Positions 4,730-37,903 of a stretch of 64,000 nt of DNA are shown here, piece after piece; the first letter of the stretch is position 1, and each line of letters opens with the position of its first letter. Source of the DNA: a bacterium. Its GTDB lineage: Bacteria; UBA8248. The stretch lies in assembly GCA_965261085.1 (NCBI GenBank), contig OZ253442.1, positions 288,001 through 352,000 on the forward strand, in the 5' to 3' direction. A model generated the notes under the pieces. It was not told the origin of the DNA, ran no database searches, and saw only the letters and a list, made by a program, of their open reading frames with translations. The position numbers and the translations under genes are program-made.

Positions 4730-4757
4730 CTTCTTCCCTTAGTCCGCCGTATGGCTT

Positions 4758-5770: not shown

Positions 5771-5796
5771 ACAGCCCAAAAACCAACCCCTGGGGG

Positions 5797-7275: not shown

Positions 7276-7277
7276 AG

Positions 7278-8834: not shown

Positions 8835-8870
8835 TCGCCCCTCACGCTCCTCAAAGAATCGAAAAAATCA

Positions 8871-10775: not shown

Positions 10776-10787
10776 GATTCCTTGCTC

Positions 10788-11090: not shown

Positions 11091-11102
11091 GTCCCACCCC
11101 TC

Positions 11103-11621
11103 CTAGCGGCTTCGCCTGCTCGCCAGTACCACGGCGCCGACGATTCCCACGAACAACAAAACGCCCATGGCCTGAAACGGCAGGACGTAATCCGTCAACA
11201 AGAGATTTCCGATCACCTGCGTGTTGCCCAGTTCGCTCACCCGCTCGAGCGGAAAGCTCCCCTTCTTGCCCGTCATGAGGGAGGTGGAGAGGAATACCTT
11301 GAGCAGCACGCTGAAAACGGCGAGCCCCGCAATAGCGCCCAGCATCTTCTGACCGGGCAGGCGCAACTCTCTTTTCTCCTCCCGGCCCAGGTTGATCAGC
11401 ATCACCACGAACAGGAAGAGCATCATGATCGCGCTGGCGTAGATGATCACCTGAACGATGGCGACGAACTGCGCGTGAAGCGAGAGGTACAACCCGGCCA
11501 GACCCAGAAAGGTCAGTATCAGGGCGAGCACGCTGTAGAGCGGGCTGGGAAACGCGACGACTGCTATCGCGCCCACCGTCGTCACCACCGCCAGGAAATA
11601 AAAAAACAAGGAACTGGCCAC
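11103..11621 (-). CDS. nuoJ: NADH-quinone oxidoreductase subunit J
   Basis: QVIIYASAIMMLFLFVVML; position between nuoI and nuoK. Confidence 0.94.
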   Translation of the reverse strand: MASSLFFYFLAVVTTVGAIAVVAFPSPLYSVLALILTFLGLAGLYLSLHAQFVAIVQVIIYASAIMMLFLFVVMLINLGREEKRELRLPGQKMLGAIAGLAVFSVLLKVFLSTSLMTGKKGSFPLERVSELGNTQVIGNLLLTDYVLPFQAMGVLLFVGIVGAVVLASRRSR

Positions 11622-11666
11622 TACCGCCCATCCTCCAGCGGGCGAGCGCCCGCCTGAAATCGAACC

Positions 11667-12146
11667 TTATACATACGTCAGCAGGTTTTTCTCGTCATAG
11701 CGGGCATGAAGCTCCGGATAATCCTCGGTTCGCTTCACGAGCAAATCGCCCTTCTCGTAGAGGAACTTGCCCCGATCGTCCTCACAGAATTCATATTCGT
11801 TGCCCAGTACGACAGCGCCGACCGGGCAGGCCTCCTCGCAGTATCCGCAAAAAATGCAGCGAAGCTCGTTGATCTCGTAAATGCTGGCGTAGCGCTCGCC
11901 CTTCGAGGTGGGCGCGGAGGGGTCGTTCTCCTCCGATTCCACGTAGATGCAGTCCACGGGACACGCCGCGGAGCAGAGCTTACACCCCACGCAGCGCTCC
12001 AGGCCGTCCTCCCAGCGCAGCAGCTTGTGGAGGCCGCGGTAGCCCACGGGCATCTCCTCTTTGACCTCGGGGTATTGCACGGTCACGCGGCTTTTGAAGG
12101 AATGCCTGAGAGTCAGCCACAATCCCCTGCAAATCTCGCCTAACAT
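11667..12146 (-). CDS. nuoI: NADH-quinone oxidoreductase subunit I
   Basis: Two CxxCxxCxxxCP ferredoxin motifs (CVGCKLCSAACP, CIFCGYCEEACP). Confidence 0.96.
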   Translation of the reverse strand: MLGEICRGLWLTLRHSFKSRVTVQYPEVKEEMPVGYRGLHKLLRWEDGLERCVGCKLCSAACPVDCIYVESEENDPSAPTSKGERYASIYEINELRCIFCGYCEEACPVGAVVLGNEYEFCEDDRGKFLYEKGDLLVKRTEDYPELHARYDEKNLLTYV

Positions 12147-12174
12147 AAAACCTCCCCCCCTTTCGAGCGGCCCG

Positions 12175-13155
12175 CTAGCCCATAAAAACGACGGCGCCGG
12201 CCGTGAGCATCACGTTCAGGATGGAGAGGGGCAGTAGCACCTTCCATCCGAAACCCATCAGTTGGTCATAGCGCAGGCGCGGCGTGGAGGCGCGCAGCCA
12301 CATGAAGAAGAACATGAACGCCAGCACCTTGATCAGGAACCAGACGACGGGCGGCAGCAACGGCCCGCGCCATCCGCCGAGGAAAAAAGTCGCTCCCACC
12401 GCCGAGAGCGTAATCATGCTGCAGTACTCGGCGATGGAGTAAACCGCAAAAAGCATGCTGCTGTACTCGGTATGAAATCCGCCAGTGAGCTCGCTCTCGG
12501 CCTCGGGCAAATCAAACGGCGCCCGGTTCGTCTCCGCCAACATGCAGATGACGAAGATCAAAAAGCCCAGGGGTTGCAGGATAATATAGGGCAACTCGGC
12601 CTGACCCCCGACGATTCCCTTGAGGCTCAGGGTGCCCGAGAGCATGACCACGCCCAGAAGCGACAAGCCGAGCGAGAGTTCGTAGCTGATCAACTGGGCG
12701 GCGGAGCGAAGCCCGCCGATGAGCGGATACTTGCTGTTCGACGCCCATGCGCCGAGCACGATGCCGTACACCCCGATGCCCCCCATGGCGAAGATGTACA
12801 GGATGCCGACGTTGACGTCGGCCAGCACCAGATCCACCTTCTGGCCGAACACCGTCACCGAATCACCGAAGGGCACCACGGCGAAGGCGGCCAGCGCCGG
12901 AATGAGCGTGATGGCCGGCGCGAGAACGTAAATCACCTTGTCCGCCTGGGTGGGAATGATGGTTTCCTTGAACATGAGCTTGATCCCGTCGGCGATGGGC
13001 TGTAAAAGCCCCGCCGGACCCACGCGGTTGGGCCCCACGCGCACCTGTATGAGCGCGAACACGCGCCGCTCCATCCAGGTCATGTAGGCGGCGAGCAGCA
13101 AAAGCCCGCTGAAGCCCACGAGCACTTTCCCGATAATAATGAGCAACGAAATCAT
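12175..13155 (-). CDS. nuoH: NADH-quinone oxidoreductase subunit H
   Basis: [11 protein letters not shown] and [14 protein letters not shown]. Confidence 0.96.
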
Positions 13156-15753
13156 CTAAACGCCCACCTCTTGGGGTTTCTCCGCTTTACGGGCCTGAAT
13201 CTCAACTCCCTGGCGGCCCGGCTCACCGCCGGTGTTCAGCGCCGAGGCCCCATGCGCGCGCAAATAACCCTCCGGCGCGAAGGCGACGCCCACGGGCGCA
13301 TTCTTATCCACGTGTACGGGAAGCCGAACAACCTCGCCGCCCACTTCGAATTCCACGAGTTCGCCGTCCATAACGCCCAGATTCTCCGCGTCGCTCGGCG
13401 AGATGGCGAGGGCGGCGCCGGGCATGTCGGCCAGATGATAGGCCGAGGCCGCATAGGCTCCCGAGAGCCACAAGACGGGCGTCAACAGCATCCTGAGTCC
13501 CGGCTCTTGCGTTTCTTTCTCGGGAATCTGCGTGATCTGATAGGCGCGCTGCCCCTCTCTTCTCAGATGCAGACCCACATCGGGAATACGGCCGAAGGCG
13601 TCCGCGTAATCACCGACGAGCGAGCGCGCCTGAATCCGAATCTTGTCCAGCGAGTTCGCCCGTAAGGGCCGCTCCATCGCTTTTGCGATATCGGCGAAGG
13701 CCCGCCAGGCTTCTGGCGCCATCTTGTCGATCATCGGCTTGAGCGCGCGAGGGAGCGACTGCGCCCTGCGCTCTAAGTTCGTGACGCTGCCTGTTTCCTC
13801 ATACAACGTGGGCGCGGGAATCACCACATCTGCGTACTGCGCGCTGGCGTTTAAGTGAGACGTCTGCAGGACGATGAAATCGGCCTTTTCCAGCGCCTCT
13901 CTCACCCGCGCTCCGTCTGGATACTCCGCCACCGGGTCGCAGCCCAGAATATAAAGGCCTTTGAGTTCACCGCTCATGAGTCCACCCAGTATGCCGCTCG
14001 TGTTTCTGCCTGCTTGCGCGGCGGGCGGCTTGCCCCACGCCTCCTCGCAGGCGGCGCGCACACCCTCATCCGACAAGTCGCCGCCGGGCAGGCTCTCTGG
14101 GTGCAGGCCCATGTCCACCGCGCCCTGTAAGTTCGGCGCGCCGGTGGCGAAGAGCATGTTGGCGCGGAGCAACAGTCCCAAATTGATCGCCTCCGAAACG
14201 GCGACCTTCCCCGTCTCCCCCGGGCCGGAGAGTATGCTCACGCCGCCATCAGCCACCAGAATCGCCCGGGCGGCGGCCATGAGGTCCTCGGGCGCCACGT
14301 CCGCCTCTTCACACAGGCGGTTCAAGTCCAAGGAATCGAGGAGCGCGGCGTATTCTTCCGCGTTCGCTCCTTCGGGTCTCGCGCCGCCGTCCACGAGGTA
14401 TGTCGCCAGCGCCCGCAGCGTGCGCGAAATGCCCCCCAGCACCGGCACCAGATGATGCACCCTGCCCTGAACGCGCAAATCGATGCGCCTTTGGTTCACG
14501 TTGATGATGACCGCGCCCGCCCGGTGCGCTTTTCTGATCTGAAGCGCGAGTATGGGATGCTGCGTGAAGGGGTCGCTGCCCACGATGACGACGGCCTTCG
14601 AGCGGCCCAACTCCTCGATGGAACCCACGCCGCCCACGCCGCCAAAGGCGGCGCGCTGTAAGTCCGTCTGTACGATGTCACGCGTGTGAATCCGGCTGTC
14701 GAGGTGGTTGGTTCCCAGAACCGAGCGCATGAAGGCGCCGAACTGATACGCGGTCTCGTTCGTGGAAGAGGCCCCGCCCAGCCCGGCGATAGCGCCGCCG
14801 CCCGCTTGCTCTATGAGAGCACCGAAGTCTCTCGCCGCCTCTCCGATAGCTTCCGCCCAGCCGACGGGCGTCAGTTCACCGTCTTTTCTGATCATCGGCT
14901 GTGTGATTCGCCCTTCTCCGTGCGCCCCGCTCCAGCCGTAGCGCGCGACGTCGCAAATCCAGGTGTCGTTGATTTTTTCGTTCTCAGCCGCCGTCACGCG
15001 CTTGATCTCGCCGTCTTTCGTCCAGACGCCCTGGCGGCAGCCCACGCTGCAAAGCGTGCAGGGGCCTTGGGTTTCCTGCATCTCCCACACGCGCGCGGTG
15101 AAGCGATATTTGTTGTCCGTAAGCGCGCCGACGGGACAGATGTCGATGACGTTGCCCGAGACGACGCTCGTCACGGGCAGGTCCTCATAGACGCCCACCT
15201 CGGTGAGATCGCCCCGCTGCGCCCAGCCGAATTCCGCCCCGCCGTCGATCTCCTCGGTGAAGCGGATACACCGGGTGCAGTGCACGCAGCGGTTCATCTC
15301 GGGCTTGATGAAGGCGCTGATCTCCTTGCTTGGATAAATGCGCCTGAACTCATGCGTCCTGCTGATCGCCTTGCCGTAGGCCATGGTCTGATCCTGCAAG
15401 GGACATTCACCGCCCTGATCGCACACCGGACAATCGAGCGGGTGGTTTTTCAGCAAAAACTCAAAGACCCCCTCCTGCGCTTCGATAACGCGCGGGGTCA
15501 CGGAACTGACTACCATGCCCTCGGCCGCCGGCGTGGCGCAGGAGGCCTGTAGTTTCGGTATCGGCCTGCCGTTGCCCGCGTCGAGCACTTCCACGAGACA
15601 GGCCCTACACTGACCCACGATGGAGAGATTCTTGTGATAGCAAAAATTCGGAACGTGCGCGCCAACGCGCAGCGCAGCCTCCAGGACGGGCAGACCCTTG
15701 TCCATCGTGATGCTCTGATCGTTGAATACGAAGGTTACTTGCTCATTCGACAT
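13156..15753 (-). CDS. nuoG: NADH-quinone oxidoreductase subunit G
   Basis: CYH...CRAC, HPLDCPVCDQGGEC, CVHCTRC and CTLCSVGC Fe-S motifs; molybdopterin-oxidoreductase-like C-terminus. Confidence 0.95.
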   Translation of the reverse strand: MSNEQVTFVFNDQSITMDKGLPVLEAALRVGAHVPNFCYHKNLSIVGQCRACLVEVLDAGNGRPIPKLQASCATPAAEGMVVSSVTPRVIEAQEGVFEFLLKNHPLDCPVCDQGGECPLQDQTMAYGKAISRTHEFRRIYPSKEISAFIKPEMNRCVHCTRCIRFTEEIDGGAEFGWAQRGDLTEVGVYEDLPVTSVVSGNVIDICPVGALTDNKYRFTARVWEMQETQGPCTLCSVGCRQGVWTKDGEIKRVTAAENEKINDTWICDVARYGWSGAHGEGRITQPMIRKDGELTPVGWAEAIGEAARDFGALIEQAGGGAIAGLGGASSTNETAYQFGAFMRSVLGTNHLDSRIHTRDIVQTDLQRAAFGGVGGVGSIEELGRSKAVVIVGSDPFTQHPILALQIRKAHRAGAVIINVNQRRIDLRVQGRVHHLVPVLGGISRTLRALATYLVDGGARPEGANAEEYAALLDSLDLNRLCEEADVAPEDLMAAARAILVADGGVSILSGPGETGKVAVSEAINLGLLLRANMLFATGAPNLQGAVDMGLHPESLPGGDLSDEGVRAACEEAWGKPPAAQAGRNTSGILGGLMSGELKGLYILGCDPVAEYPDGARVREALEKADFIVLQTSHLNASAQYADVVIPAPTLYEETGSVTNLERRAQSLPRALKPMIDKMAPEAWRAFADIAKAMERPLRANSLDKIRIQARSLVGDYADAFGRIPDVGLHLRREGQRAYQITQIPEKETQEPGLRMLLTPVLWLSGAYAASAYHLADMPGAALAISPSDAENLGVMDGELVEFEVGGEVVRLPVHVDKNAPVGVAFAPEGYLRAHGASALNTGGEPGRQGVEIQARKAEKPQEVGV

Positions 15754-15770
15754 CTATCGCCTCTTCCCCA

Positions 15771-17075
15771 TCACGTCGCGGCGGGATACGGGCTGTCCAG
15801 CGGACAGCGGCCCAGAGAGATGTGCGCTTCAAATTCATCGTGAAATTTCGTCAAAAACGCGCCGAACATCATGGCGCACGCATCCGAGAGCACACAGATG
15901 GTGTTGCCGCGCATGTTGGGGTCTATCGACGCGAGCGTCTCCAAATCGTCGGGTACTCCCGCGCCCCTCTCCATCCGGGCGAGAATCTCGGATACCCAGC
16001 CGGTTCCCTCCCGGCAGACCGAGCATTGTCCGCAGGATTCGTGCTCGAAAAAGGCGGCGAGCCTGCCGGCGGCCTGCACCATGCACGTTGTCTCGTCCAT
16101 GACGATGACCCCGCCGCTGCCGCCCATGCTGCCCGCCCGGGCGAGGGAGTCGAAATCCATCGTCACCTTGTCTTCATATACTTCCTTCGCGGTGAGGGCG
16201 GGCGCGCTCGCGCCGCCGGGAATCACCGCTTTCAAGGCCGCGCCGTTTCGCATGCCGCCGCAGTGTTCGTGAATCATCTCCTCGCACGTCAGGCCGAGCG
16301 GCAACTCATAAAGGCCCGGTTTCTCTACGTGGCCCGAGACGCAGTACATGCGGGTGCCCGAGTTTTTCTCATCGATTCCGATGCCTGCGAACCACTCCGC
16401 CCCCTTGTTCACGATGTGGGGGAGATTGGCGAGCGTTTCCACGTTGTTGATGACCGTGGGCCGCGCATACAGACCGACGACCGCCGGAAACGGCGGCTTG
16501 AGGCGCGGATGCCCGCGCTTGCCCTCGAGCGATTCCAAAAGCCCGGTTTCCTCGCCGCAGATGTAGGCCCCCGCTCCGCGGTGGGTGTAGATATCGCACG
16601 AAAAACCACTGCCCATGATGTTCCGGCCGACGTAGCCCTTCTCATAGGCTTCGGCCAGAGCCTTTTCCACCGCGCGCCAGGGGGCGACGAATTCGCCGCG
16701 AATGTAAATGTAGGCCTTTTCGATTCCCACCGCGTAGCAGGCGATGAGGATGCCCTCGATGAGTTGATGCGGGTCGCGCAGCATGAGCTCTCGATCCTTG
16801 AACGTGCCGGGCTCTCCCTCGTCCGCGTTGACGGCCAGGTATTTCGGCCCGTCCACCTGGGGCACGAAACTCCACTTGAGCCCGCAAGGAAACCCGGCGC
16901 CGCCTCGCCCGCGCAGGCCCGAGGACTTCACGAGTTCGATGACGTCTGCGGGTTCGACACCGCCCAGAAGGCGTCTTATCGCCTCATAGCCGCCCGAGGC
17001 CTCATAGCCCGCGATATGCGGCGCATCGGGATTATCGAACCGGCCCGTCACGATTTTTTCTAAAACCAACGCCAT
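15771..17075 (-). CDS. nuoF: NADH-quinone oxidoreductase subunit F
   Basis: GRGGAGFP, NADEGEPGTFKDR, GAGAYICGEET and ESCGQCSVCREG. Confidence 0.97.
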   Translation of the reverse strand: MALVLEKIVTGRFDNPDAPHIAGYEASGGYEAIRRLLGGVEPADVIELVKSSGLRGRGGAGFPCGLKWSFVPQVDGPKYLAVNADEGEPGTFKDRELMLRDPHQLIEGILIACYAVGIEKAYIYIRGEFVAPWRAVEKALAEAYEKGYVGRNIMGSGFSCDIYTHRGAGAYICGEETGLLESLEGKRGHPRLKPPFPAVVGLYARPTVINNVETLANLPHIVNKGAEWFAGIGIDEKNSGTRMYCVSGHVEKPGLYELPLGLTCEEMIHEHCGGMRNGAALKAVIPGGASAPALTAKEVYEDKVTMDFDSLARAGSMGGSGGVIVMDETTCMVQAAGRLAAFFEHESCGQCSVCREGTGWVSEILARMERGAGVPDDLETLASIDPNMRGNTICVLSDACAMMFGAFLTKFHDEFEAHISLGRCPLDSPYPAAT

Positions 17076-17709: not shown

Positions 17710-18933
17710 CTAACGATCTATCTCGCCCAACACGATGTCGATGCTGCCGATGGCGGCCACGACGTCGCCCATCAGCCCGCCCCGGGTGATCTCGGAGAGC
17801 GTATGGAGATTCGCGAAACTCGGCGCGCGCACTTTTACCTTATAAGGACTCGGGCTGCCATCGCTGATGATGTAATAACCAAGCTCCCCCCGGGGGGATT
17901 CGATGGCCTGGTACACCTCGCCCTCGGGCACGCTGTAGCCTTCGGTGAATATCTTGAAATGATGGATCAACGCCTCCATGTCGTGGGCCAACTGCTCCTT
18001 GGGCGGCGGCACCACCTTGGCGTTGTCCGCCATGAGGGGACCCTCGGGCATTCCCTCGAGCGCCTGCATGGCGATGCGCCGCGATTGGCGCATCTCGGCG
18101 ATCCGCACCAGATACCTGTCCAGAATGTCGCCCCGCTCTCCCACGGGAACCTCGAAGTCGAACTCCTCATACCCCGAGTAGGGCTCGTTCTTGCGGATGT
18201 CGTAGGGCACGCCGCAGGCCCGGAGCAACGGCCCCGTGATGCCGAGGTCATAAGCCTGCTCGACCGTCATGGCGCAAACGCCCTGCGCGCGGCGTCTGTA
18301 GATGGGGTTGTTGGTGAGTAGTTCCTCATACTCGTCCACGCGATCGGAGAAGGGTTCCAGAAAATCCCGGCAATCCTCATAAAACGTCGGGTAGGGTTCG
18401 CGCGCGACGCCGCCTACCCGGAAATAGCTCGTCATCATGCGGACGCCGGAGACTTTCTCGAAAACCTTGAGAAGTTGCTCGCGTTCTCTAAAGCAATACA
18501 AAAAGACCGTCATCGCGCCCAGATCGAGCGCGTGGGTGCCGAGCCAGACCAGATGGCTGTTCAGGCGCGTCATCTCCGCGAGCAGCACGCGCAGATACCT
18601 GCACCGGCGGGGAACCTCCATATCCAGGAGTTTCTCCACGGCCAGAACGAAGCCCAGATTGTTCGACATCGGCGCCAGATAGTCCATGCGGTCGGTCATG
18701 GGGAGGGCCTTGTTGTAGGTTTTCTCCTCCATGCTCTTCTCGATGCCGGTATGCAGGTAGCCGATGATGGGCTTGCACGAGAGCACCGTCTCGCCGTCTA
18801 GTTCGAGCACCACGCGCAGAACCCCGTGGGTGCTCGGGTGCTGCGGCCCCATGTTGAGCGTCATCGTCTCGGTCTGTATCGGACCGAGCATGTCGCTGTC
18901 GAGTGGGTCTGCGCGCTGCGCTTGCGTGGCCAT
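17710..18933 (-). CDS. nuoD: NADH-quinone oxidoreductase subunit D
   Basis: NMGPQHPSTHGVLR, MEALIHHFK and DIVLGEIDR. Confidence 0.97.
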   Translation of the reverse strand: MATQAQRADPLDSDMLGPIQTETMTLNMGPQHPSTHGVLRVVLELDGETVLSCKPIIGYLHTGIEKSMEEKTYNKALPMTDRMDYLAPMSNNLGFVLAVEKLLDMEVPRRCRYLRVLLAEMTRLNSHLVWLGTHALDLGAMTVFLYCFREREQLLKVFEKVSGVRMMTSYFRVGGVAREPYPTFYEDCRDFLEPFSDRVDEYEELLTNNPIYRRRAQGVCAMTVEQAYDLGITGPLLRACGVPYDIRKNEPYSGYEEFDFEVPVGERGDILDRYLVRIAEMRQSRRIAMQALEGMPEGPLMADNAKVVPPPKEQLAHDMEALIHHFKIFTEGYSVPEGEVYQAIESPRGELGYYIISDGSPSPYKVKVRAPSFANLHTLSEITRGGLMGDVVAAIGSIDIVLGEIDR

Positions 18934-18951
18934 CGAAGGCTCCCGTGATCC

Positions 18952-19518
18952 TTATTCCGCCGCCTTGGGCTTGCCCGCGGGCGTATCCCTGAAGGTGAAC
19001 GCCACCGGCTCGGATGAGATGTCGAAATCCTTGCGGTGGGGATAGCCCTCGAAGCCCTCAGGCGTGAGGATGCGCTCGAGTTCGGGGTGTCCCTCGAAAT
19101 TGATCCCCAAAAGGTCGTACGCCTCGCACTCATGGAGCCTCGCGCCGGGCCATATCCCGCAGATGCTGGGCATCGTCGGCTCGAGATCGTCCGCGCAGGG
19201 GGCTTCTATGCGCAGACGCCGCGACTTTTCGGGATTCAGCAGCGAATACGTCACCTTGAACCGGTAGGAAACCGGCAACTCCAGACAATCCACCCCGCAG
19301 ACGAAGCTCAGGAACTTGTACCCTCTCTCATCGCGCAAGAATCGCACCGCATCGAGCAAGGCGCCCGGCGCGACCTGGGTGGATATCTGGCCGCGATGCT
19401 CGCCCGCCCCGAGAAAGCCGCCCCCGATCTTCGCCTGCAACAAAACGAGGTCGGGGTTTTTTCTTTCGATCGGCTCCTCGGTCGGCTCTTCGACCTCCCC
19501 CTGCTCCTCTTCATTCAA
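18952..19518 (-). CDS. nuoC: NADH-quinone oxidoreductase subunit C
   Basis: ECEAYDLLGINFEGHPELERIL...YPHRKDF. Confidence 0.94.
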   Translation of the reverse strand: MNEEEQGEVEEPTEEPIERKNPDLVLLQAKIGGGFLGAGEHRGQISTQVAPGALLDAVRFLRDERGYKFLSFVCGVDCLELPVSYRFKVTYSLLNPEKSRRLRIEAPCADDLEPTMPSICGIWPGARLHECEAYDLLGINFEGHPELERILTPEGFEGYPHRKDFDISSEPVAFTFRDTPAGKPKAAE

Positions 19519-22417: not shown

Positions 22418-23939
22418 GGGGTTGTTGAATAACCCGGTTTCGGGAGCGGGCGGTATGGAGGGTCACGCGGCGGCGGACAGGAAGCCCGCGCAGCTTGCGA
22501 GGCCGCGATGGACGCACAGAGGCTCTTCCCGGGCCGACCAGGCCCTCCAGAGGGCGAATAACCTTGCAGCAAGTGCGGCGGAGAGCCGCTTGAGGTTGAT
22601 CGCCGCCGCCGTCAGGTAGGACTGTATCTTCATGTTCTCAAGACCGCGCCGCACCGCGCGCGCAAGCCCGTGCCAGGTCTTCGCCTCGCCGTGGTAGCCC
22701 TCCGAGCGCCACATATGACGCCGGTACATCCGCCGCTCCTCCTCCCTCCATCGCGCATGGCGCCGGCGCGCGCGCAACAGCGCCGGATACGCATGCGGAA
22801 CCAACACCACCTTGCTCGACCACGCCTTCGGCAGGCAATCCTCGCGAAGCGCGCAGCCCGCGCAATCACGGGTCTTCGAACGATAATAACGCCCCCCCTT
22901 TGCGGGCCGACGGGGGCTCAGTATCTTGCCGCGCGGACACTTCACGATGTCGTGCCGCGCGTCGTAGCGGAACAGGCGCAACGGAACACGGCTCTGCGAG
23001 GGTTCCCTCTTCGCCGGAATGAGCGCGGCCACACCCCGGCGCTCCAGGGCCGCGTAGACCTTCGAGTAGGCGTAGCCAGAGTCCGCCGTCACCATCGCGG
23101 GCGCGCGCCCCGATACCTCGCATACCGCTTCCACCTGCGATTCGAGCACCTCACGCTCGTTCACCGTACCCTCCGTCACCGATACGTCGAGCACCACCCC
23201 GCGCGTGTCGTCCACCACAGCGTGCTGCTTGTAGCTCGGCTCGAATCCCCCGCCCGTTCTCGCCAGCCGCGCGTCCGGGTCCGTCCGGCTCACCTTCCCG
23301 GAACCCCCGCCACGGCGGCCTCCTCCACCCTTCTTCCCGGCCTCCTCCTCGACGGGGTTCTCCGCTATCACCTCGTCCACGTGACGCTCCACCAGACTCT
23401 CCCAACTCACGTCCGCGCGGATCAATGAGGCGTCCACGTGCACGACTTCGGCCTTGGCCACCTTCGCATCCAGGCACGCACGGACCGTGCGGCGGAATAT
23501 CTCCCGGAACCGGGCCTCCCCCCAGCGCTGCCGTATCCGCGTCAGGCTCGAATGATCCGGCAGCCGATCCTCCAGCCCGTAACCGATGAACCACCGGATC
23601 GCGATGTTCACCTGCGCCTCGCGCATCAACCGACGGTCGTGCACGAACCCCAGCAGAAGGCCCGCCAACATCAACCGAACCGCCACTTCGGGGTCGATCC
23701 CAGGACGGCCGTTGTCCGCGCAATAACAATCCGCCACTTCCTCGCGCAGCCAACTCAGGTCCAGAACGCGGTTCACGCGGGCCAATATGTGATCCTCGGG
23801 AATCAACCTCTCCAGCGAACCGGTGATGAACAAATCCATCTGGGCGCGGTTCTTGCGTCCCAACATCGCGGATATTCCCTTCTCGGGCGCGTAATATCCA
23901 TACATCCAAGCATAGAGTCAGGGGTTTTTCAACAACCCC
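22418..23939 (-). mobile_element. IS1182-family insertion sequence, apparently intact
   Basis: TIRs GGGGTTGTTGAATAACCC / GGGTTTTTCAACAACCCC; direct repeat GAAGA at 22413-22417 and 23940-23944; one transposase inside. Confidence 0.9.
22463..23866 (-). CDS. IS1182-family DDE transposase
   Basis: GRPGIDPE, PDHSSLTR, VDASLI, ADSGY, CPRG...CAGCALREDC and EGYHGEAK...NLKRL. Confidence 0.92.
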   Translation of the reverse strand: MLGRKNRAQMDLFITGSLERLIPEDHILARVNRVLDLSWLREEVADCYCADNGRPGIDPEVAVRLMLAGLLLGFVHDRRLMREAQVNIAIRWFIGYGLEDRLPDHSSLTRIRQRWGEARFREIFRRTVRACLDAKVAKAEVVHVDASLIRADVSWESLVERHVDEVIAENPVEEEAGKKGGGGRRGGGSGKVSRTDPDARLARTGGGFEPSYKQHAVVDDTRGVVLDVSVTEGTVNEREVLESQVEAVCEVSGRAPAMVTADSGYAYSKVYAALERRGVAALIPAKREPSQSRVPLRLFRYDARHDIVKCPRGKILSPRRPAKGGRYYRSKTRDCAGCALREDCLPKAWSSKVVLVPHAYPALLRARRRHARWREEERRMYRRHMWRSEGYHGEAKTWHGLARAVRRGLENMKIQSYLTAAAINLKRLSAALAARLFALWRAWSAREEPLCVHRGLASCAGFLSAAA

Positions 23940-29418: not shown

Positions 29419-30447
29419 CTAATTCTGCGACCCCCGGGTTTGCGCTGCGCGTTGTTCCACATAATCTTCCAACGAGAAAGGCGTGCCTGCGTTTTCGGGT
29501 GCGGCGGTCTCAACGCCGGGGAAGTTCGACGCCTCCTCGAACCAGGTCCGTTGCGCGGGCAAGCCCCATCCTCCCTGATGGATACCTGAAACGTCCCATT
29601 CCACCGGCTCTATTTCCATGTCCAGCATTTGATGCGGCGCATCGAGAAGTATTTCGCACCGGTGGCCATCGGGGTCGCGGATGTAGACATACTGGACGTG
29701 CCCCATCGTGTGCCGACCGGGGCCACGTTCCACGGCGTCACCGTAACCCATTTGCCCGGTGATATCACAGGCGCGCATCATATTCTGAAATGAGCGCGTG
29801 ACGTAAGCGAAGTGGTGCATACGCGGCCCCCGACCGGTAAGAAAAACGATATCCCAGGGAATGTCCTTGCGGTAAGAGAAGACCCCCAGTACGTTGTTCC
29901 CTCCTTGCGCCGTCATATAGTCGCTGACCCTGAAACCGAGCCTGCTGTAAAGGTCGAACGCGCTCACAACGTCGGCTGCGTGGAGCTGCATATGATCGAA
30001 GCGCAGACCGCAGGCTCCTTTGTGCGCGTTGTGATCCGAATCGGCGCGATTGACGCGGTCCATGCGGGCGCAGAATTCCAACGGGACCCCGCTGGGGTCG
30101 GAAACCCGGAGCGTCCGGCCTTGATAGGGCGTTTCAACCCAACTTGGCGCGAGGTTCTCGGCAATGAAGAATTGCTCGGCTTTTTCGAGTTCTTCCTCCG
30201 TCAGAACACGGAAGCCGACGGCCTCGCAGACCGGTTCGGCATCGGTGCGCTTGAGCACGAGGCTGTGGTGGCAGGCCTCCTCGATACCGCGAAGGTAGAC
30301 GACATCGCCGTCCTCTTCCGTCACGACCAGGCCATACACTTCCATATAGAAATCCCGGCTGCGCGCGGGATCACGGATGGTGAGAACGGTGTGGCTGATG
30401 CGGGTGATGTTGAACGGTGGGTAGAAGACCGGAGAGGGAATAGGCAT
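29419..30447 (-). CDS. VOC-family extradiol dioxygenase, homoprotocatechuate 2,3-dioxygenase-like
   Basis: FNITRISH, YLRGIEEACHHSL, FDH, GPRMHHFAY, ERGPGRH, YIRDPDGHRCE and WGLPAQRTWFEE; GGAG RBS before ATG 30447. Confidence 0.85.
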   Translation of the reverse strand: MPIPSPVFYPPFNITRISHTVLTIRDPARSRDFYMEVYGLVVTEEDGDVVYLRGIEEACHHSLVLKRTDAEPVCEAVGFRVLTEEELEKAEQFFIAENLAPSWVETPYQGRTLRVSDPSGVPLEFCARMDRVNRADSDHNAHKGACGLRFDHMQLHAADVVSAFDLYSRLGFRVSDYMTAQGGNNVLGVFSYRKDIPWDIVFLTGRGPRMHHFAYVTRSFQNMMRACDITGQMGYGDAVERGPGRHTMGHVQYVYIRDPDGHRCEILLDAPHQMLDMEIEPVEWDVSGIHQGGWGLPAQRTWFEEASNFPGVETAAPENAGTPFSLEDYVEQRAAQTRGSQN

Positions 30448-30566
30448 TGTTTGCTCCTTTTCACCAAAGTTGCGCTCTTCATCAGAGGCAGATCCGGCGG
30501 AGTCGGCCGCACGGTGTGCTCTGCGTTTTTCCCGCTGCCGAGGGACATCCGTCAGCAGCTTCATAG

Positions 30567-31226
30567 TCATTCGGGACCCGGGTTTCCCACGAAATGCGAT
30601 ATGGGAGCGACAATGCAGCCTTCGGAAATCGGAATGCACGCGGGCGAGATTTCCTGTTTGATCGCGATACCGCGATCACGCGCTTCATCGATGAACCGGC
30701 CGAGGTGCCGCATGGCGCCGGTGGGAATGTCGTGGAGGACCATGACGCTCCAGTCCTGGCCCTCGCAGTGTTCGAGCGCCGTTTCCACCCAACCGTCCGG
30801 CTGCTCCCAATCGCGCGGGATGCTGTTCCACAGCACCATGGTGAAGCCATCTTCCAGGAGTATGTCCCGCGCCTGCGGGCTGAGCAGATGGTCGCCCAAC
30901 AAGCCGCCATCGCCTTTGGGACGAAACATGCGGCGGTTCGAGCCGACCTCATCGATCAGTGCTTGAGTCCCGCGAATTTCGCGCTCGACGACCTCATCGA
31001 GTGGCTGACGGCCCAACGGTACCGAATGCGACCAGGTGTGGTTCCCGATCCAGTGCCCTGCTGCCAGCACGCTTTGCGCAAGCGGACGACCGTCCGGCAG
31101 CGCCAGCCTCTCGCCAAGCATAAAGAAAGTGGCCAGAACTTCCTTCTCCTCCAGCACGCGGAGAACCTGCGGGGTAACGTCGGCAAACGGGCCGTTGTCG
31201 AAAGTGAGGGTAAGAGATTTCGTCAT
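30567..31226 (-). CDS. Polysaccharide deacetylase (NodB/CE4) family protein
   Basis: LTFDNGP, ATFF, GNHTWSH, FRP, DW and VLHD. Confidence 0.85.
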   Translation of the reverse strand: MTKSLTLTFDNGPFADVTPQVLRVLEEKEVLATFFMLGERLALPDGRPLAQSVLAAGHWIGNHTWSHSVPLGRQPLDEVVEREIRGTQALIDEVGSNRRMFRPKGDGGLLGDHLLSPQARDILLEDGFTMVLWNSIPRDWEQPDGWVETALEHCEGQDWSVMVLHDIPTGAMRHLGRFIDEARDRGIAIKQEISPACIPISEGCIVAPISHFVGNPGPE

Positions 31227-31230
31227 GGGC

Positions 31231-31776
31231 TTAGAAAGGCGCTGAAGCACCGGAGGGAAGGTCGAACTCGGCCGCGTTGAGAGTTGCCGCGCCGATGATG
31301 TAATGCCCGATGAGACCCGAAATCTCAATGATGCCAGGAACACCGAACCTTTCCCGCACCGCATGGAACTGCTCGTCGGACACGCGGCGGTCCTCGAGCA
31401 GGGTCTTCACATAGGCGTACACCGCTGCTTCGGTGTCGTCGTCGAAATGCGGGGGGCGTCCGGTGCGGATGGACTCGATTATGTCGCCGCTCAACCCGTT
31501 CCTTCGCGCAATAGGCTCGTGCACGAGCCACTCGTGGTAACAGCGCCAGTCGCGGGCGACAGTCAGGATTATCAACTCTCTGATGTTGCCTGGCAGCGAC
31601 GCCTTGAAACGCAGGTATTCGCCAACCTCCTGGGTGCGGTCTGCAAAATCGGGCTGATGGAGCCACAACCCCATAAGTCCCGAGGCATGGCCGCGTCCAC
31701 CTGCGATCATCCGCTCCGCCACTTCACGCTGACGGGCTGTCATATCTTTTTCGTCGACGCCGTAAAAGCGAGCCAT
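31231..31776 (-). CDS. Carboxymuconolactone decarboxylase/AhpD-like protein
   Basis: GEYLRF...RELIILTVARDW...EWLVH...GL pattern. Confidence 0.8.
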   Translation of the reverse strand: MARFYGVDEKDMTARQREVAERMIAGGRGHASGLMGLWLHQPDFADRTQEVGEYLRFKASLPGNIRELIILTVARDWRCYHEWLVHEPIARRNGLSGDIIESIRTGRPPHFDDDTEAAVYAYVKTLLEDRRVSDEQFHAVRERFGVPGIIEISGLIGHYIIGAATLNAAEFDLPSGASAPF

Positions 31777-31955
31777 GAACCCCTCCTCACCTGGATTCTG
31801 GAAGGAACGAGACCATGTCGGCGTTCCTTCCCTTGGATTTACCATAGTTTCACGAATCCGCTTTCATTTCGATTACATACTGCAGAAGATAAATTCCGAA
31901 CCAAATTTGGAATAATGAATAATTCATAACAATGCCAATATGATAAAAGGATTTC

Positions 31956-32950
31956 ATGGCTTATGAAAACGGCTTGATGTATCTAAAAAGATATGAGGGA
32001 GAAATCTCCCGCCTGAGCGATCTGACCATGAATCAGAGGATGAACATGCCTATCGAAAAAGTCGATGGATTCTATTTTCACCCCGACTCGCGTGATCGCG
32101 TCCTGGCGCAGCGCTATGCGGACCGGGCCAAAACGCCCTGGACGCCGATGGAAAAACCGCTCGAACAATGCAAGGTCACCTTGGTCTCCACGGCCGGCAT
32201 TTTCATGAAGGACGACGTCTCCTTTGATTATGAGAGAGAACACCGCGAGGGCACCTGGGGCGACCCCACCCACCGGGAGATTCCCAAAACGGCGGGGCAG
32301 CACGACGTGGCGTATTCCCACCTGCACGTCGACACCTCGTTCATGGCTGAGGACAGAAACGTGGCCTGGCCGGTCGACATCTTTTTCGATTTCGAGAGGG
32401 AAGGAAAAATCGGCGCGCTGGCCGATACGCTGTATTCCATCATGGGCTACATCCCGAATTTCAGCCCGCTGGTGAAGCGCACGGCACCTCTGATGATCGA
32501 GAAGATGAAGGAAGGGGGCGTGGACGTGGCTTTTCTCTACCCGGTCTGACCCTTGTGCAACCGGTCCGGCGGACTGCTTCAGCGCGAAATCGAAAAGGCG
32601 GGCATTCCCACCGTCATCATCTCCACGTGCCAGAAACCACCGAGCGTGTCTGCGTGCCCAGAGCGGTGTTCGTCCAATATCCCTTCGGACGTCAACTGGG
32701 CCTCGTGGGCGATTACGACGGCCAGCGCAGGATTTGCGAGGACATGGCGAGGGTGCTGGAAGAAGCGCAGTCACCCAACGACTACCGGCACCTGCCCTAT
32801 GAGTGGCCCGAGCCGCCCGAGACCACCAAATGGCGTCCGGATGTACCGCCTCCCATCTTCGCCATCCGGCAGGCCAAAGAGGGTGGACACAATCTGATGG
32901 ATGATTTCAAGGACGAGGAGCGGGCCGCGTATTCGGACACCAGTCGCTAG
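31956..32950 (+). CDS. PrdB/GrdB-like selenoprotein (Sec UGA at 32547-32549), with a 1-nt frameshift near 32621-32632
   Basis: PWTPMEKPL...LVSTAG...GDPTHREIP...DRNVAWP...EGKIG...VDVAFLYPV-TGA-PLCNRSGGLLQREIEKAGIPTV gives UxxC; the family-like tail PRAVFVQYPFG...QR...LPYEW lies in the -1 frame. Confidence 0.82.
32550..32580 (+). promoter_or_regulatory. Putative bacterial SECIS hairpin
   Basis: CGGTCC-GGC-GGACTG stem-loop with a G-led apical loop 18 nt after the in-frame UGA. Confidence 0.6.
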
Positions 32951-32960
32951 CAAAAGGCCC

Positions 32961-32995
32961 GGAGCGCGCCGTCGGCCTTACCGCGCGCTCCTTTT
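32961..32995 (+). terminator. Intrinsic terminator after the selenoprotein gene
   Basis: GGAGCGCGC...GCGCGCTCC followed by TTTT. Confidence 0.6.
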
Positions 32996-33007
32996 ATGAC
33001 CCCCAAA

Positions 33008-34489: not shown

Positions 34490-35251
34490 TCAGGTGGCCT
34501 GTCCCGCCGCCTGTGTGGCTTTTTCGAGTTCCTCGGGCGTTAGGGGATCGCCCACGCCGATCATCGAATCGCGCGTTACGAGCTGGAAGAGTTGCGCTTC
34601 ACTCCAGTCTTCGGTTCCCTTCGGACGCTGGGGGATGATGAGGTAGCGGCAGTCCGCGTTCGAGTCGATGACGATGAGTTCCACATCATCAGGCGCCTCG
34701 AAGCCCATGTCCTTGAGGGTGCCCCTCGGGTCCGTTACGGCTTTCGAGCGATAGGGGAAGCTCTTGTACCAGGTGGGGGGCTGTCCGAGGATTTGCCTCG
34801 GGTAGCACGAACACAGCGTGCACACCACCATGTAGCGGGTCGTGTCGGTATTCTCGAGAGCCACCACGCGGTTGATGCCCGTGGTATCGACGCCCATTTC
34901 GGAGCAGGCGGCGTCCGCGTCCGCCAGGAGCCTTTCCTTGAAGCCCTCATCCACCCAGGCGCGCGCGATGATGCGCGAGCCAATAGCGGGGCTTTGGCCG
35001 TAAATCTCCTCCACCGCGCGCCTCATCTCATCGGTCGTGAGAATGCCCTTCTCGCGGAGGACGCTCATCAGGGCCATCATGCGCACCTGGTAGTAGTCCA
35101 GATCGTGCTCCACCTGGGTTACGGCCCCCTCGCGGTAGGCGTCGTCGGACTGCATGCGCGCGTTGTGCGCCGCGGGGTCCTGACTGTAGGTGTGGGGATG
35201 GTCGCCGTGGTGGTGAGTATGTCCGTTGTGATGATCGTGAGAGTGCGCCAT
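34490..35251 (-). CDS. Cobalt-type nitrile hydratase alpha / thiocyanate hydrolase gamma-like subunit with a His-rich N-terminus
   Basis: ARAWVD, VVCTLCSCYP, PPTWYKS..YRS and RYLIIPQRP; GAGGAG RBS before ATG 35251. Confidence 0.92.
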   Translation of the reverse strand: MAHSHDHHNGHTHHHGDHPHTYSQDPAAHNARMQSDDAYREGAVTQVEHDLDYYQVRMMALMSVLREKGILTTDEMRRAVEEIYGQSPAIGSRIIARAWVDEGFKERLLADADAACSEMGVDTTGINRVVALENTDTTRYMVVCTLCSCYPRQILGQPPTWYKSFPYRSKAVTDPRGTLKDMGFEAPDDVELIVIDSNADCRYLIIPQRPKGTEDWSEAQLFQLVTRDSMIGVGDPLTPEELEKATQAAGQAT

Positions 35252-35290
35252 GGTGTGCTCCTCGTTCACGGGGGCGCCGGCGGATTCGTT

Positions 35291-35578
35291 CTAGACCGGC
35301 TCCAGCCAATGTTCATAAATTTCGATATAGATTTTGTCCTGTTTTTTCCCCGCCTCGTGATCCCACAGATCGTTGATGTCGAACTCCACCCAGTAGAGTT
35401 CCCTGAGCGGCAGGCCGTCGCCGCCGTAGGCGAGATTTTCCGGGTTTTTGTATTTGCCGAAATAGCGGTTGACCACCCCGGTCTTTCCCTTCACGAAATA
35501 TGTCGTTCGATGATGGCCGTCGGGGTACATCTCCTTGATGCGCACCCTGTCGCCCATGCGGAACCGGGTTTCCTCCAT
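35291..35578 (-). CDS. Nitrile hydratase beta C-terminal SH3-like / thiocyanate hydrolase alpha-like subunit
   Basis: FRMGDRV, GHHRT..VKGKTG, NPENLAYG, LYWVEF..DLW and EIYEHWLEP. Confidence 0.88.
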   Translation of the reverse strand: MEETRFRMGDRVRIKEMYPDGHHRTTYFVKGKTGVVNRYFGKYKNPENLAYGGDGLPLRELYWVEFDINDLWDHEAGKKQDKIYIEIYEHWLEPV

Positions 35579-35604
35579 CAGAACATCCCCTTCTCAGTTG
35601 GAAC

Positions 35605-35658
35605 GACTCGACAAAGAGAACATTTCAATTTTACACCGCGAAGACTCTTTGTCCAGTC
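35605..35658 (-). promoter_or_regulatory. Putative sigma70 promoter overlapped by a 14-bp inverted repeat
   Basis: Minus strand TGGACA-N16-TAAAAT; arms GACTCGACAAAGAG / CTCTTTGTCCAGTC (13 of 14 match). Confidence 0.4.
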
Positions 35659-35659
35659 C

Positions 35660-36676
35660 CTATATTTTAAGCCCATAAACGCGCCGGGCGTTACCCGTGA
35701 GAATCATCTCCTGCTCGGACTCCGAGAGCCGGTTCAAGCCCGGAATATCCCGTGCGGGCTGGTGATAGCCCATATCCGCCGGATAGTCCGTGCCGTACAG
35801 AATCCGCTCCGCTCCCAGCGTTTTGGCCGCAAATTCGAAGGCGTCCGCGTTGTGGATGATGGTGTCGTAGTAAAAACGGCCAAAATACTCCTCGGGGTCT
35901 TTCGCGCCATAGACCTTGGGTTCTCTGCGCTCGCCGTAGCCGTGTTGCCAGCGGCCCCGAATCCAGGGCACGAAACCGCCTACGTGGGAGAGATAGAAAT
36001 TCAGTTTCGGGAACCTGTCCATCACGCCGCCGAAGATGAGGCACGCCACCGCGATGGTGGTGTCGAGCGGGTTTCCGATGAAATTCCTCAAGTAGAAATC
36101 CTTGAGACGATCCTCTGAACCAAGCACGTTCGTGGGATGCACGAACACGGGCATATCGAGCGCCTCGGCCTTGGCCCAGAAGACGTCAAGTTCCCGATCG
36201 TCGAGGTTCTTCCCCGCCACGTTCGAGGCGATCATCACGCCGAGGTGGCCGTTCGCCTTCGCACGCGCAAGTTCGTCCGCCGCGGCCTCGGGCGCCTGAA
36301 GGGGCGCCGTGGCCATGCAGGAGAATTTGTCGGGATACTCCCTCGCCAGCGCCGTCAGGCCGTCGTTCAGCGAGGCGGCCAACTCTTTGTTCGCCTCCGC
36401 TTCGAGCGTGTAGAGCGTCATGGCGGGGCCGATGGAGAGCACCTGATGCGCGACGCCCATGCGCTCCATGTCGGCGAAGCGCGACCCCAATTCATAGTAA
36501 AGGGGAGTGAGCTTGTTCCTGAGTTCCGTCTCTCGCCCCAGAACTTTTCCTCGGGTGATGAGCCACTCGCCTTGCGCGTCGGCCTCTATCGTCGCCGTGC
36601 GGCCGAAGCGGCCCGCGCGCACATCCGCAATAAAACCCTCGGGGTAGATATGGGTATGGGGATCGATCGCCGTCAT
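35660..36676 (-). CDS. Amidohydrolase_2, ACMSD/decarboxylase-like
   Basis: IDPHTH, VFVHP, GNPLDTT, SHVGG, YYDT and YGTDYP. Confidence 0.88.
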   Translation of the reverse strand: MTAIDPHTHIYPEGFIADVRAGRFGRTATIEADAQGEWLITRGKVLGRETELRNKLTPLYYELGSRFADMERMGVAHQVLSIGPAMTLYTLEAEANKELAASLNDGLTALAREYPDKFSCMATAPLQAPEAAADELARAKANGHLGVMIASNVAGKNLDDRELDVFWAKAEALDMPVFVHPTNVLGSEDRLKDFYLRNFIGNPLDTTIAVACLIFGGVMDRFPKLNFYLSHVGGFVPWIRGRWQHGYGERREPKVYGAKDPEEYFGRFYYDTIIHNADAFEFAAKTLGAERILYGTDYPADMGYHQPARDIPGLNRLSESEQEMILTGNARRVYGLKI

Positions 36677-36760
36677 CTTCTTCTCTATCTCTGCTGGGGG
36701 GAGGCCCACTCGGGCCTCCTCACCGCATATTTGTCGAGTTGCTTTCGCCGCCGCAAGCTC

Positions 36761-37777
36761 TTACACATCCAGTTTGTAGAGCTTCTTCACGTTTCCGTAG
36801 AGCATTTTTTCCTGATCTTCTTCCGAGAAGCGCGAAAGCCCCGGAATTTCCTTCGCCCCGGCCAGATAGCCCATGTCGAAGGGATAGTCCGTACCGTAGA
36901 GAATCTTGTCCACGCCGAGCGTCTTCACGGCGAACTCGAAGGAATCCGCGTTGTGGATGATGGTGTCGTAATAAATCTTGCCGAAATACTGCTCGGGATC
37001 TTTCGCGCCGTGCACCTTGGGTTCTCTGCGCTCGCCGTAGCCGTGCTGCCAGCGGCCCCGGATCCAGGGCGTGAAGCCGCCCACATGCGAGACCAGAAAC
37101 TTGATGTTCGGGAAGCGGTCGAACACGCCGCCGAAGATGAGGCAGGCGATGGATATCGTGGTGTCGAGCGGGTTGCCGATGAAGTTTCTCAGGTAATAGT
37201 CCTTGAGCCTGTCGTTGACGCCCATGACGTCCACCGGATGAATGAAAATCGGCACGTCGTGCTCGCACGCTTTGGCCCAGACGACGTCGAGCGCGGGGTC
37301 GTCCAGGTTCGTCCCCGCGACGTTCGAGCCGATCTGGCAGCCCAGATGACCGTTTTTCACCGCGCGGTCGAGTTCGGCCGCCGCCGCTTCCGCGTCCTGG
37401 AGCGGAATCTGCGCCATGCAGAGAAAACGCTCGGGGTGTTCTTTCGTGAGTGCGGTGAGCGCATCGTTCAAAGATGTGGAGAGTTCCCTGTTCAGGCCCG
37501 CGTCGAGCGCATAGTGCGTCATCGGCGGAACGACGGAGAGAATCTGTATGTCCACGTTCTGGTTGTTGTCCATGTCGCTCAGGCGCATTTCGACGTCATA
37601 GGTTTCCTTCGGCAGCGGGTTCTTGTGAATCCGCTCTTCGCCGAGGACGGTGCTTTTCGTGACGAGTTGCTCCCACGGATCGCCTGCTTCGATGGTGACG
37701 GCGTCGCCGAAACGGCCTTGGCGCACGTCTTCTATGAAACTCTCGGGAGCGATGTGGGCATGGGGGTCGATGATCAC
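36761..37777 (-). CDS. Amidohydrolase_2, ACMSD/decarboxylase-like paralog
   Basis: IDPHAH, IFIHP, GNPLDTT, SHVGG and YGTDYPFDMG. Confidence 0.88.
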   Translation of the reverse strand: MIIDPHAHIAPESFIEDVRQGRFGDAVTIEAGDPWEQLVTKSTVLGEERIHKNPLPKETYDVEMRLSDMDNNQNVDIQILSVVPPMTHYALDAGLNRELSTSLNDALTALTKEHPERFLCMAQIPLQDAEAAAAELDRAVKNGHLGCQIGSNVAGTNLDDPALDVVWAKACEHDVPIFIHPVDVMGVNDRLKDYYLRNFIGNPLDTTISIACLIFGGVFDRFPNIKFLVSHVGGFTPWIRGRWQHGYGERREPKVHGAKDPEQYFGKIYYDTIIHNADSFEFAVKTLGVDKILYGTDYPFDMGYLAGAKEIPGLSRFSEEDQEKMLYGNVKKLYKLDV

Positions 37778-37903
37778 CGGAACTTCTCCTTATCGGTACG
37801 TGAATGAGGAAAACCTGTTTTCAGAAAAAAGATTTTTGGAATTTTCGAGGGCCGATTATGCACATTTTGCCGCCGCCACGCCAGAGCGCGGGGCCTTGCG
37901 CCG

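Follow-up and report, generated by a model that had tools for sequence, protein, structure and literature searches.

A probable stand-alone PrdB-like selenoprotein gene, interrupted by a one-base gap, in a bacterium of the UBA8248 lineage

Layout of the gene and its reading frames

The stretch of DNA analysed here, hereafter the window, is 64,000 nucleotides long (positions 288,001 to 352,000 of contig OZ253442.1, assembly GCA_965261085.1) and comes from a bacterium of the UBA8248 lineage. On its forward strand, positions 32046..32950 hold what we take, with roughly four chances in five, to be a copy of a stand-alone PrdB-like (PF07355) selenoprotein gene of ~301 residues, in which a UGA codon is decoded as selenocysteine (Sec). 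Relatives of this gene were collected by a scan of one genome per species, which returned 533 loci; the locus counts given below refer to the best 80 of these 533.

The original prediction started from a 197-aa open reading frame (ORF) that stops at a TGA within PV-U-PLC, and such an ORF is indeed present: it spans 31956..32549 (+) and is closed by the TGA at 32547-32549, within FLYPV-U-PLCNRS. Its first 30 codons (31956..32045) form an in-frame upstream extension that is probably untranslated, and stops occur in this region in orthologues. The family-wide start lies 167 codons ahead of the Sec codon, which is ATG 32046 in the window, and a putative Shine-Dalgarno-like AGAGG can be read from the sequence at 32035..32039, 6 nt ahead of this ATG. 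The N-terminal coding part (MPIEKVDGF...FLYPV, 167 codons) thus occupies 32046..32546 and is followed by the TGA read as Sec, the U of U-P-L-C.

Past the TGA, the read-through frame continues with 25 family-like codons at 32550..32624 (PLCNRSGGLLQREIEKAGIPTVIIS; ..LLQREIEKAGIPTVIIS), which include the resolving Cys of UxxC and are identical or nearly so in orthologues. It then turns into low-complexity nonsense and runs into a second TGA at 32895-32897. The family-like sequence goes on in the -1 frame, in ORF 32555..32950 (VPETTERVCVPRAVFVQYPFGR...AAYSDTSR; VPETTERVCVPRAVFVQYPFGRQLG...DEERAAYSDTSR, then TAG 32948-32950), where the C-terminal coding part (VPETTERVCVPRAV...AAYSDTSR) makes up 107 codons plus the stop at 32627..32950 (+). 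The two parts are separated by a break at 32625..32626, where the window has AC and orthologues have an Asn codon (AAC or AAT), i.e., a 1-nt deletion causing a -1 shift. The in-frame continuation that had been claimed is therefore real for the 25 codons after Sec but not beyond, where the conserved C-terminus lies in the -1 frame. Likewise, the joined product of about 331 aa has to be given up in view of the start at ATG 32046, the second TGA and the 1-nt deletion: conserved start and stop delimit 905 nt, 1 nt short of 302 codons, and intact orthologues are ~301 aa long.

The gene is followed by a terminator-like GC-rich hairpin with a 9-bp outer stem (32961-32991) and then UUUUAU, the whole element covering 32961..32997 (+) between convergent genes. 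A terminator had been predicted here, and the hairpin and its U-rich tail agree with this, but the element was not reported by a consensus terminator scan, its fold is no better than that of shuffles (z -0.55) and it is kept only in the two closest loci (L001 and L003).

The UGA codon among relatives

A script found TGA at the U-P-x-C site in 79 of the 80 loci, followed by 115-138 open codons. The 80th locus, L003, carries an upstream frameshift, yet the same TGA is visible in the DNA alignment, which brings the count to 80/80. The C-terminal, -1-frame piece of the window has a tblastn match in 78 of the 80 loci. Protein databases hold the family in two forms. A word-indexed protein search retrieved 18 relatives, 16 of which were aligned (without P0002, a protein of mixed frames, and the distant P0019): 12 of the 16 end exactly one column before the TGA, and the other four (P0005-P0008, 293-299 aa) go on with CPLC. 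An exhaustive profile search retrieved 3601 cluster representatives at E <=1e-3, 1522 at 1e-10 and 193 at 1e-30. At the Sec column of the best 150 representatives, 63 have CxxC, 23 stop just ahead of it and 25 are gapped (several of the latter ending 1-2 residues earlier), the remaining ones carrying S, G, W or other residues. Among these are WxxC relatives (P0055, P0056 and P0059) and GxxC relatives (P0066, P0073, P0074, P0136 and P0153); Trp or Gly at this column could come from a gene caller that read a TGA with a different genetic code, or be a real substitution.

The 112 rows of a FastTree tree were made up of 43 Sec rows taken from the loci, 64 full-length (not truncated) representatives and 5 Cys proteins of the word-indexed search. 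The Sec rows all group within a single clade of 49 (support 99), in which 6 Cys forms are nested, and the sequences from Nitrospinota make up a clade of 27 that is Sec throughout (support 100). In the window itself, the ordinary stops of 40 Pfam-supported genes are 19 TGA, 13 TAG and 8 TAA; as TGA is the commonest ordinary stop, the recoding is local and does not reflect a changed genetic code. In summary, the in-frame UGA occupies a column that is filled by Cys in homologues, the coding sequence beyond it is conserved, and, judging from these comparisons, the TGA at 32547-32549 is almost certainly a Sec codon. A crude scan of the window for other selenoprotein candidates with an in-frame TGA found none convincing, and a check of the neighbouring CMD-family gene for Sec found none.

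The simplest objection is that the TGA is a plain stop, followed by chance or separate downstream ORFs, or else that the downstream frame is reached through a programmed -1 ribosomal frameshift. Standard ORF calling does yield the 197-aa ORF, and TGA is a normal stop in the window. However, the 115-138 codons past the TGA are conserved in frame in related loci, with a ratio of non-synonymous to synonymous substitution rates (dN/dS) of ~0.1, and homologues have Cys at this very column. A programmed -1 frameshift was rejected, as there is no slippery heptamer at 32620-32630 and 8/8 orthologues need no shift. We give these explanations next to no weight.

A SECIS-like hairpin past the UGA

Bacterial selenocysteine insertion sequences (SECIS) are described as stem-loops located just past the UGA, whose small apical loop has a G in it (PMC1088965). 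The window has an element of this form, since the 74 nt from the TGA fold into CGGUCC / GGC / GGACUG at 32562-32576 (+), with a 6-bp stem (32562-32567 paired with 32571-32576) and a GGC loop (32568-32570). The stem begins 12 nt past the UGA, and the loop G at 32568 lies 18 nt past the TGA, in line with the G-led hairpin of the original prediction.

The comparison across loci supports the hairpin in several ways. In 70 distinct post-UGA sequences, the first loop base (column 22) is an invariant G (70/70), and the hairpin has 87.6% of its cells paired, against at most 56.9% with a slid partner, with 2 compensatory pairs. In a subset of 21 sequences that includes the window, RNAalifold finds the hairpin de novo, and 99.2% of cells are paired, against at most 54.8% with a slid partner. 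This level of pairing was matched by 0/500 shuffles; the subset has 2 compensatory pairs (C-G to A-U and G-C to A-U), a number that 3/500 shuffles also attained. In 13 Desulfobacterota-like sequences the stem grows to 10 bp and 96.9% of cells are paired (at most 50.8% when slid), without covariation. Finally, synonymous-codon entropy drops at codons +4..+10 after Sec, exactly over the hairpin, in three clades: 0.21 vs 0.42-0.71 elsewhere in the orthologues, 0.04 vs 0.50-0.67 in a second Nitrospinota paralogue, and 0.37 vs 1.02-1.53 in the Desulfobacterota-like group.

Several results weigh against a Sec gene with a SECIS. The 74-nt stretch of the window folds no better than shuffles (z -0.04), so that the support for a SECIS has to come from the comparison of loci. 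RNAalifold returned no consensus structure when run on all 70 post-UGA sequences, and the second Nitrospinota paralogue has 2 of the 6 hairpin pairs broken (20-21 of the 70 rows). No Rfam family was found in the whole window at gathering scores, nor around the site at E up to 10. As to the machinery, SelA, SelB and SelD families and any tRNA are absent from the 64-kb window, and tRNA-Sec is not among the tRNAs of 55 loci scanned, which hold only two tRNA-Ser. The lineage nevertheless appears to use Sec: among the ten organisms richest in selenoprotein genes, BSepDB tabulates three 'Nitrospinota' metagenome-assembled genomes (MAGs), which are placed in GTDB phylum UBA8248 and hold 48-54 such genes, and one of the three shares its isolate name with the genome holding locus L025 (PMC13326102). 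This table lends indirect support to the presence of Sec machinery in the genome. The bacterial SECIS that the original prediction proposed to look for is backed by comparison but not by the single sequence or by the consensus of all 70, and we regard the UGA and SECIS of the window gene as well supported.

The one-base deletion

A DNA alignment of the window with eight orthologous loci shows TCC-ACGTGCC in the window and TCCAA(C/T)GTGCC in 8/8 loci, the intact state at the break site being TCCAACGTG and the deleted state TCCACGTG. The same 1-base gap appears in 6/6 pairwise blastn comparisons. The missing A falls in the Asn codon 26 codons past Sec, and the protein product of the gene as assembled would have its last 90 residues out of frame. 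Both pieces are otherwise well preserved, with 93% identity to the intact orthologue L002 for the N-terminal piece (156/167) and 95% for the C-terminal piece (99/104, L002 residues 195-298). Against 8 intact orthologues, Nei-Gojobori dN/dS is 0.07-0.15 ahead of Sec and 0.10-0.15 past the break. If genuine, the deletion would have to be very recent, as dN/dS is ~0.1 on both sides.

Related copies are also broken. The closest loci, L001 and L003, have in common another 1-base deletion (ATT-CCACC), and L003 carries a third (GGA-AGGGGC). Values of dN/dS among the three broken copies (window, L001 and L003) are 0.126, 0.126 and 0.244, compared with 0.076-0.124 for intact pairs, and L001 and L003 differ by 12.5 synonymous and 10.5 non-synonymous changes.

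Two accounts of the gap have to be weighed. Either the selenoprotein gene has just been inactivated in this organism by a real 1-nt deletion, leaving a genuine pseudogene, or the base missing at 32625/32626 was lost through an error of assembly or base calling. Of the 9 aligned sequences, the window alone has the deletion, and no other coding frameshift unique to it was found in the ~20 kb compared. Moreover, a three-gene insertion parts the window gene from its upstream MFS genes. Frameshifts also cluster oddly in this one gene, in the window (32500-32640), in its closest relatives L001 and L003 (near 10500-10640) and in the mixed-frame database protein P0002, and the genes flanking the broken copies, where compared, are unbroken; such clustering could mean real decay in a sub-lineage. 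A generally noisy assembly was rejected, since the nuo genes of the window are whole and no other coding frameshift is unique to it in the stretch compared. On the other hand, dN/dS past the break stays at 0.10-0.15, and L001 and L003, which have a deletion in common, have still diverged under constraint. In addition, each of the three distinct deletions shortens a homopolymer run (AA, CCC and GGGGG) by one base, and base-calling errors often fall in such runs. As purifying selection is kept in copies that look broken, assembly errors in short base runs are favoured: we consider an error to be the likely cause of the gap, and inactivation of the gene a possible but doubtful one.

The second multi-frame match of the comparison is a 2-nt indel at 18944-18945, in the gene at 17710-19133 (-) and close to its 5' end. 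This indel is polymorphic, 5 of the 8 compared loci sharing the state of the window and 3 carrying the deletion, and it looks like natural variation of a start region and not an error.

Relationship to PrdB and GrdB

The claim of a PrdB/GrdB-family selenoprotein with UxxC is borne out by a match of the N-terminal piece (31956-32546) to the Pfam family GRDB (PF07355; 36.7 bits, E 3.8e-9, above the gathering cut-off of 22) and by the motif itself, which is U-P-L-C in the window and U/C-P-x-C in 79 loci and in Cys homologues. Placement below the family level is less straightforward. The best NCBIfam model is that of PrdB (TIGR04483), which gives 71.7 bits for the N-terminal piece, 102.1 for the in-frame read-through, 132 for the intact L002 and 120-156 for four other members, all below the cut-off of 300; intact relatives cover this model nearly end to end (positions 13-20 to 234-235 of 238). 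The scores for TIGR01918, the broader subfamily model for selenoprotein B of glycine/betaine/sarcosine/D-proline family reductases, are likewise under the cut-off of 65.45 (55 bits for the window read-through, 58.3 for L002 and 35.9-52.6 for others). The GrdB, GrdF and GrdH models are matched over their C-terminal half only; matches to TIGR01917 span model positions ~209-421 of 431, in line with a protein of ~301 aa that does not have the full length. By curated cut-offs, the window protein is thus neither a PrdB equivalog nor a GrdB, and it is best described, on sequence grounds, as a homologue over the whole PrdB core.

Compared with PrdB of Clostridioides difficile and Clostridium sticklandii (TIGR04483), the window-type protein is homologous over essentially the full PrdB length and has Sec in UxxC at the equivalent place, the codon being an in-frame UGA that is followed by a SECIS. 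It differs from PrdB in being ~60 residues longer, with extra N- and C-terminal stretches of ~30 and ~45 residues, in having no prdA, prdC, prdH or prdF adjacent to its gene, in scoring 102-156 bits against the cut-off of 300, and in its hosts, which are Nitrospinota, Desulfobacterota and Dehalococcoidia MAGs and not Stickland fermenters. With GrdB, GrdF and GrdH (TIGR01917, NF040794 and NF040795), it shares PF07355 and a match over the C-terminal half of these ~431-435-residue proteins, UxxC included. Unlike them, it has no counterpart of their N-terminal ~200 residues, scores 33-63 bits against cut-offs of 600-800, and has no grdA, grdE, grdC or grdD near its gene.

There is also a likeness with the stand-alone Cys proteins of the family (e.g., P0005-P0008 and P0023), which belong to the same length class (280-299 aa), have CPLC or CPDC where the window has UPLC, are nested in the Sec clade and need no recoding; P0005-P0008 are 39-41% identical to the intact L002. 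A protein-cluster search with P0023, a natural Cys homologue, returned GRDB-family clusters only. These Cys proteins are named 'glycine/sarcosine/betaine reductase selenoprotein B family protein' in databases, and JGI labels homologues 'D-proline reductase (dithiol) PrdB'. A search of PDB sequences with the family profile found nothing significant, the sole match being a glutaredoxin (E 0.54). Among 21 longer representatives scanned, 2 have an AMP-binding fusion, 1 an HTH and 1 a protein kinase domain (P0050, P0065, P0028 and P0132, the domains being AMP-binding adenylating in two, HTH_3 in one and protein kinase in one).

Neighbouring genes and search for a partner

Immediately upstream of the gene, three genes on the opposite strand encode a CMD-family protein (31231-31845), a member of the polysaccharide-deacetylase family (30570-31364) and an HpaD-like extradiol dioxygenase (29422-30639; 264.9 bits, below the cut-off of 321.4). 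Beyond this block come two MFS genes and an Amidohydro_2 gene, and the convergent downstream neighbour is a type I phosphodiesterase-family gene. The setting among aromatic-catabolism genes that had been suggested carries little weight, as the block at 29422-31845 is found in only 1 of the 80 loci (L003) and looks like a lineage-specific insertion. In L002, and in the other syntenic loci as judged from match positions, the gene comes directly after Amidohydro_2-MFS-MFS on the same strand. A gap of 22 nt in L002 parts the end of the second MFS ORF (10026) from the start of the selenoprotein gene (10049).

The original prediction that no PrdA/GrdE-type partner lies beside the gene is confirmed. 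No member of the Gly_reductase/PrdA/GrdE, GrdA and PrdC families was found in the 64 ORFs of the window, and none of the PrdA/GrdE, GrdA and PrdC families in the 84 ORFs scanned for related loci (72 around 13 related loci and 12 cluster representatives). The position beside PrdA that marks a PrdB gene is accordingly seen neither in the window nor at the related loci scanned.

In the second Nitrospinota paralogue, a gene encoding DinB/MDMPI_N and SCP2 domains (TIGR03083, mycothiol-dependent maleylpyruvate isomerase family) lies upstream in 20 loci, among L028-L048 and L058-L060, on the same strand and ~0.9 kb upstream of the match. Its product is a possible functional partner of that paralogue.

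Possible functions of the protein

In the reading that we favour, the UGA is decoded as Sec, which is well supported; the small SECIS-type hairpin lies within the gene and has G as its first loop base, and the active-site U-P-L-C follows on a beta-strand-like stretch. The protein may, as the original prediction suggested, perform an undescribed reaction. If its chemistry resembles that of its homologue PrdB, the selenolate might attack a small substrate at an electrophilic carbon or chalcogen, the adjacent Cys would resolve the adduct to a selenenylsulfide, and a dithiol or thioredoxin-type donor could re-reduce the latter. Because no pyruvoyl partner (PrdA/GrdE) is encoded alongside, the substrate is probably neither D-proline nor glycine. 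The position of intact orthologues directly behind Amidohydro_2 and two monocarboxylate-type MFS genes suggests an imported small carboxylic acid, an assignment that we advance tentatively, and the AMP-binding fusions hint at an acyl-adenylate or thioester. Stand-alone PrdB-like selenoproteins could then form a separate enzyme class, carrying out Se-dependent reductive cleavage without a pyruvoyl partner on an MFS-imported carboxylic acid or an acyl-adenylate/thioester, although as a whole this proposal is rather doubtful. It draws on homology and on the synteny of one clade, and other clades bring no independent support for the carboxylate idea. Outside the clade of the window, the neighbours are unrelated (radical SAM, methyltransferase, aldehyde ferredoxin oxidoreductase, CBS/DUF1847 and TPP-enzyme genes), and we found no functional neighbour conserved across clades.

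Two other functions may be envisaged. The protein could serve a true D-proline (or glycine-type) reductase as its PrdB subunit, with the gene for the pyruvoyl partner lying elsewhere in the genome. The Sec151 of true PrdB attacks D-proline, held on the pyruvoyl group of PrdA, at its alpha-carbon; the U151C variant of C. difficile PrdB is inactive, and PrdC regenerates the enzyme (PMC11229817). The best NCBIfam match and its nearly full-length alignment, the UxxC motif as in PrdB/GrdB (PMC13188914) and the JGI naming of homologues would all fit this function. It is nonetheless highly improbable, as the scores stay far under the equivalog cut-off of TIGR04483 and, at 36-58 bits, under the subfamily cut-off of TIGR01918, the protein has extra residues at both ends, and no PrdA, GrdE, PrdC or GrdA was seen in the window or in the ORFs scanned around related loci, whereas genuine prd and grd genes are clustered (PMC11229817, PMC13188914). 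Alternatively, the U-x-x-C could be that of a thioredoxin-fold-like, general thiol/selenol-disulfide oxidoreductase, serving as antioxidant or redox relay and not cleaving a substrate. Consistent with this, the U/CxxC lies between a hydrophobic strand and a helix-like stretch, the glutaredoxin match, albeit not significant, is aligned exactly at the motif, gene neighbourhoods differ between clades, and Table 3 of the Sargasso Sea survey places PrdB among thiol-dependent redox selenoproteins (PMC1088965). But conservation extends over all 230 residues of the PrdB core, where many positions other than Cys are invariant (WGDP, HLH, R206, W254 and W263), and 35 of the best 150 representatives have neither Cys nor Sec at one CxxC position, which a pure relay would not tolerate; we therefore regard this function as unlikely.

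Other features of the window

Downstream of the selenoprotein gene, two long tandem ORFs (34592-36118 and 36137-37807, +) lie in the same frame and have no Pfam or NCBIfam match; they resemble each other, at ~72-75% DNA identity where blastn cross-matches them, and both are kept in the syntenic loci. A DDE transposase gene (DUF772, DDE_Tnp_1_6) is located at 22466-23905 (-), between an ACT-domain gene and an EamA gene; relatives of it were seen in no more than 2 of the 80 loci, where they lie at different positions. At the start of the window, region 1140-17075 holds two sets of NADH dehydrogenase (nuo) genes, including two NuoH-type genes (1991-2959 and 12178-13155), which suggests two complex I-type gene clusters.

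Place among known selenoproteins and significance

The gene had been presented as a hidden orphan. It is hidden in the sense that ORF calling cuts it at the TGA, just as it does with the 12 of 16 aligned homologues that stop there, but its kind has been catalogued in marine surveys. The Sargasso Sea survey lists 'Proline reductase PrdB' (pfam07355, UxxC) as the third most abundant selenoprotein family, with 42 genes (PMC1088965), and the Global Ocean Sampling (GOS) survey reports 235 selenoproteins and 110 Cys homologues under the same name (PMC2398784). The terms 'PrdA' and 'pyruvoyl' are absent from the text of the GOS survey (PMC2398784); the available part of the Sargasso Sea survey makes no mention of a partner, and no search aimed at PrdA was made there (PMC1088965). 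These ocean-metagenome proteins belong to the same Pfam family and have the same UxxC, with Sec and Cys forms mixed, and the window gene most probably belongs to their kind, the likeness being one of description and not of alignment. Reviews of 2022 and 2026 treat GrdB (PF07355, UxxC) and D-proline reductase (TIGR04483, UxxC) as characterized families (PMC9312934, PMC13188914), and a literature search for a stand-alone PrdB-like or GrdB-like branch (PF07355, IPR010187, COG5275) found no paper. The stand-alone PrdB-like branch has been catalogued in marine microbes since 2005, and the window gene is one more, broken, member of it.

The window gene is an example of a selenoprotein that annotation pipelines can lose on two counts, the UGA and a one-base gap. 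PF07355 proteins with U/CxxC and no partner are numerous, with 533 loci in the species-representative genomes scanned and 3601 protein clusters, and the literature searched yielded no account of their activity. If they do form a separate class, hundreds of genes from marine and sediment sources would bear the label 'proline reductase' wrongly. Working out their biochemistry would correct many annotations and could reveal Se-dependent chemistry in non-fermenting Nitrospinota, Desulfobacterota and Dehalococcoidia.

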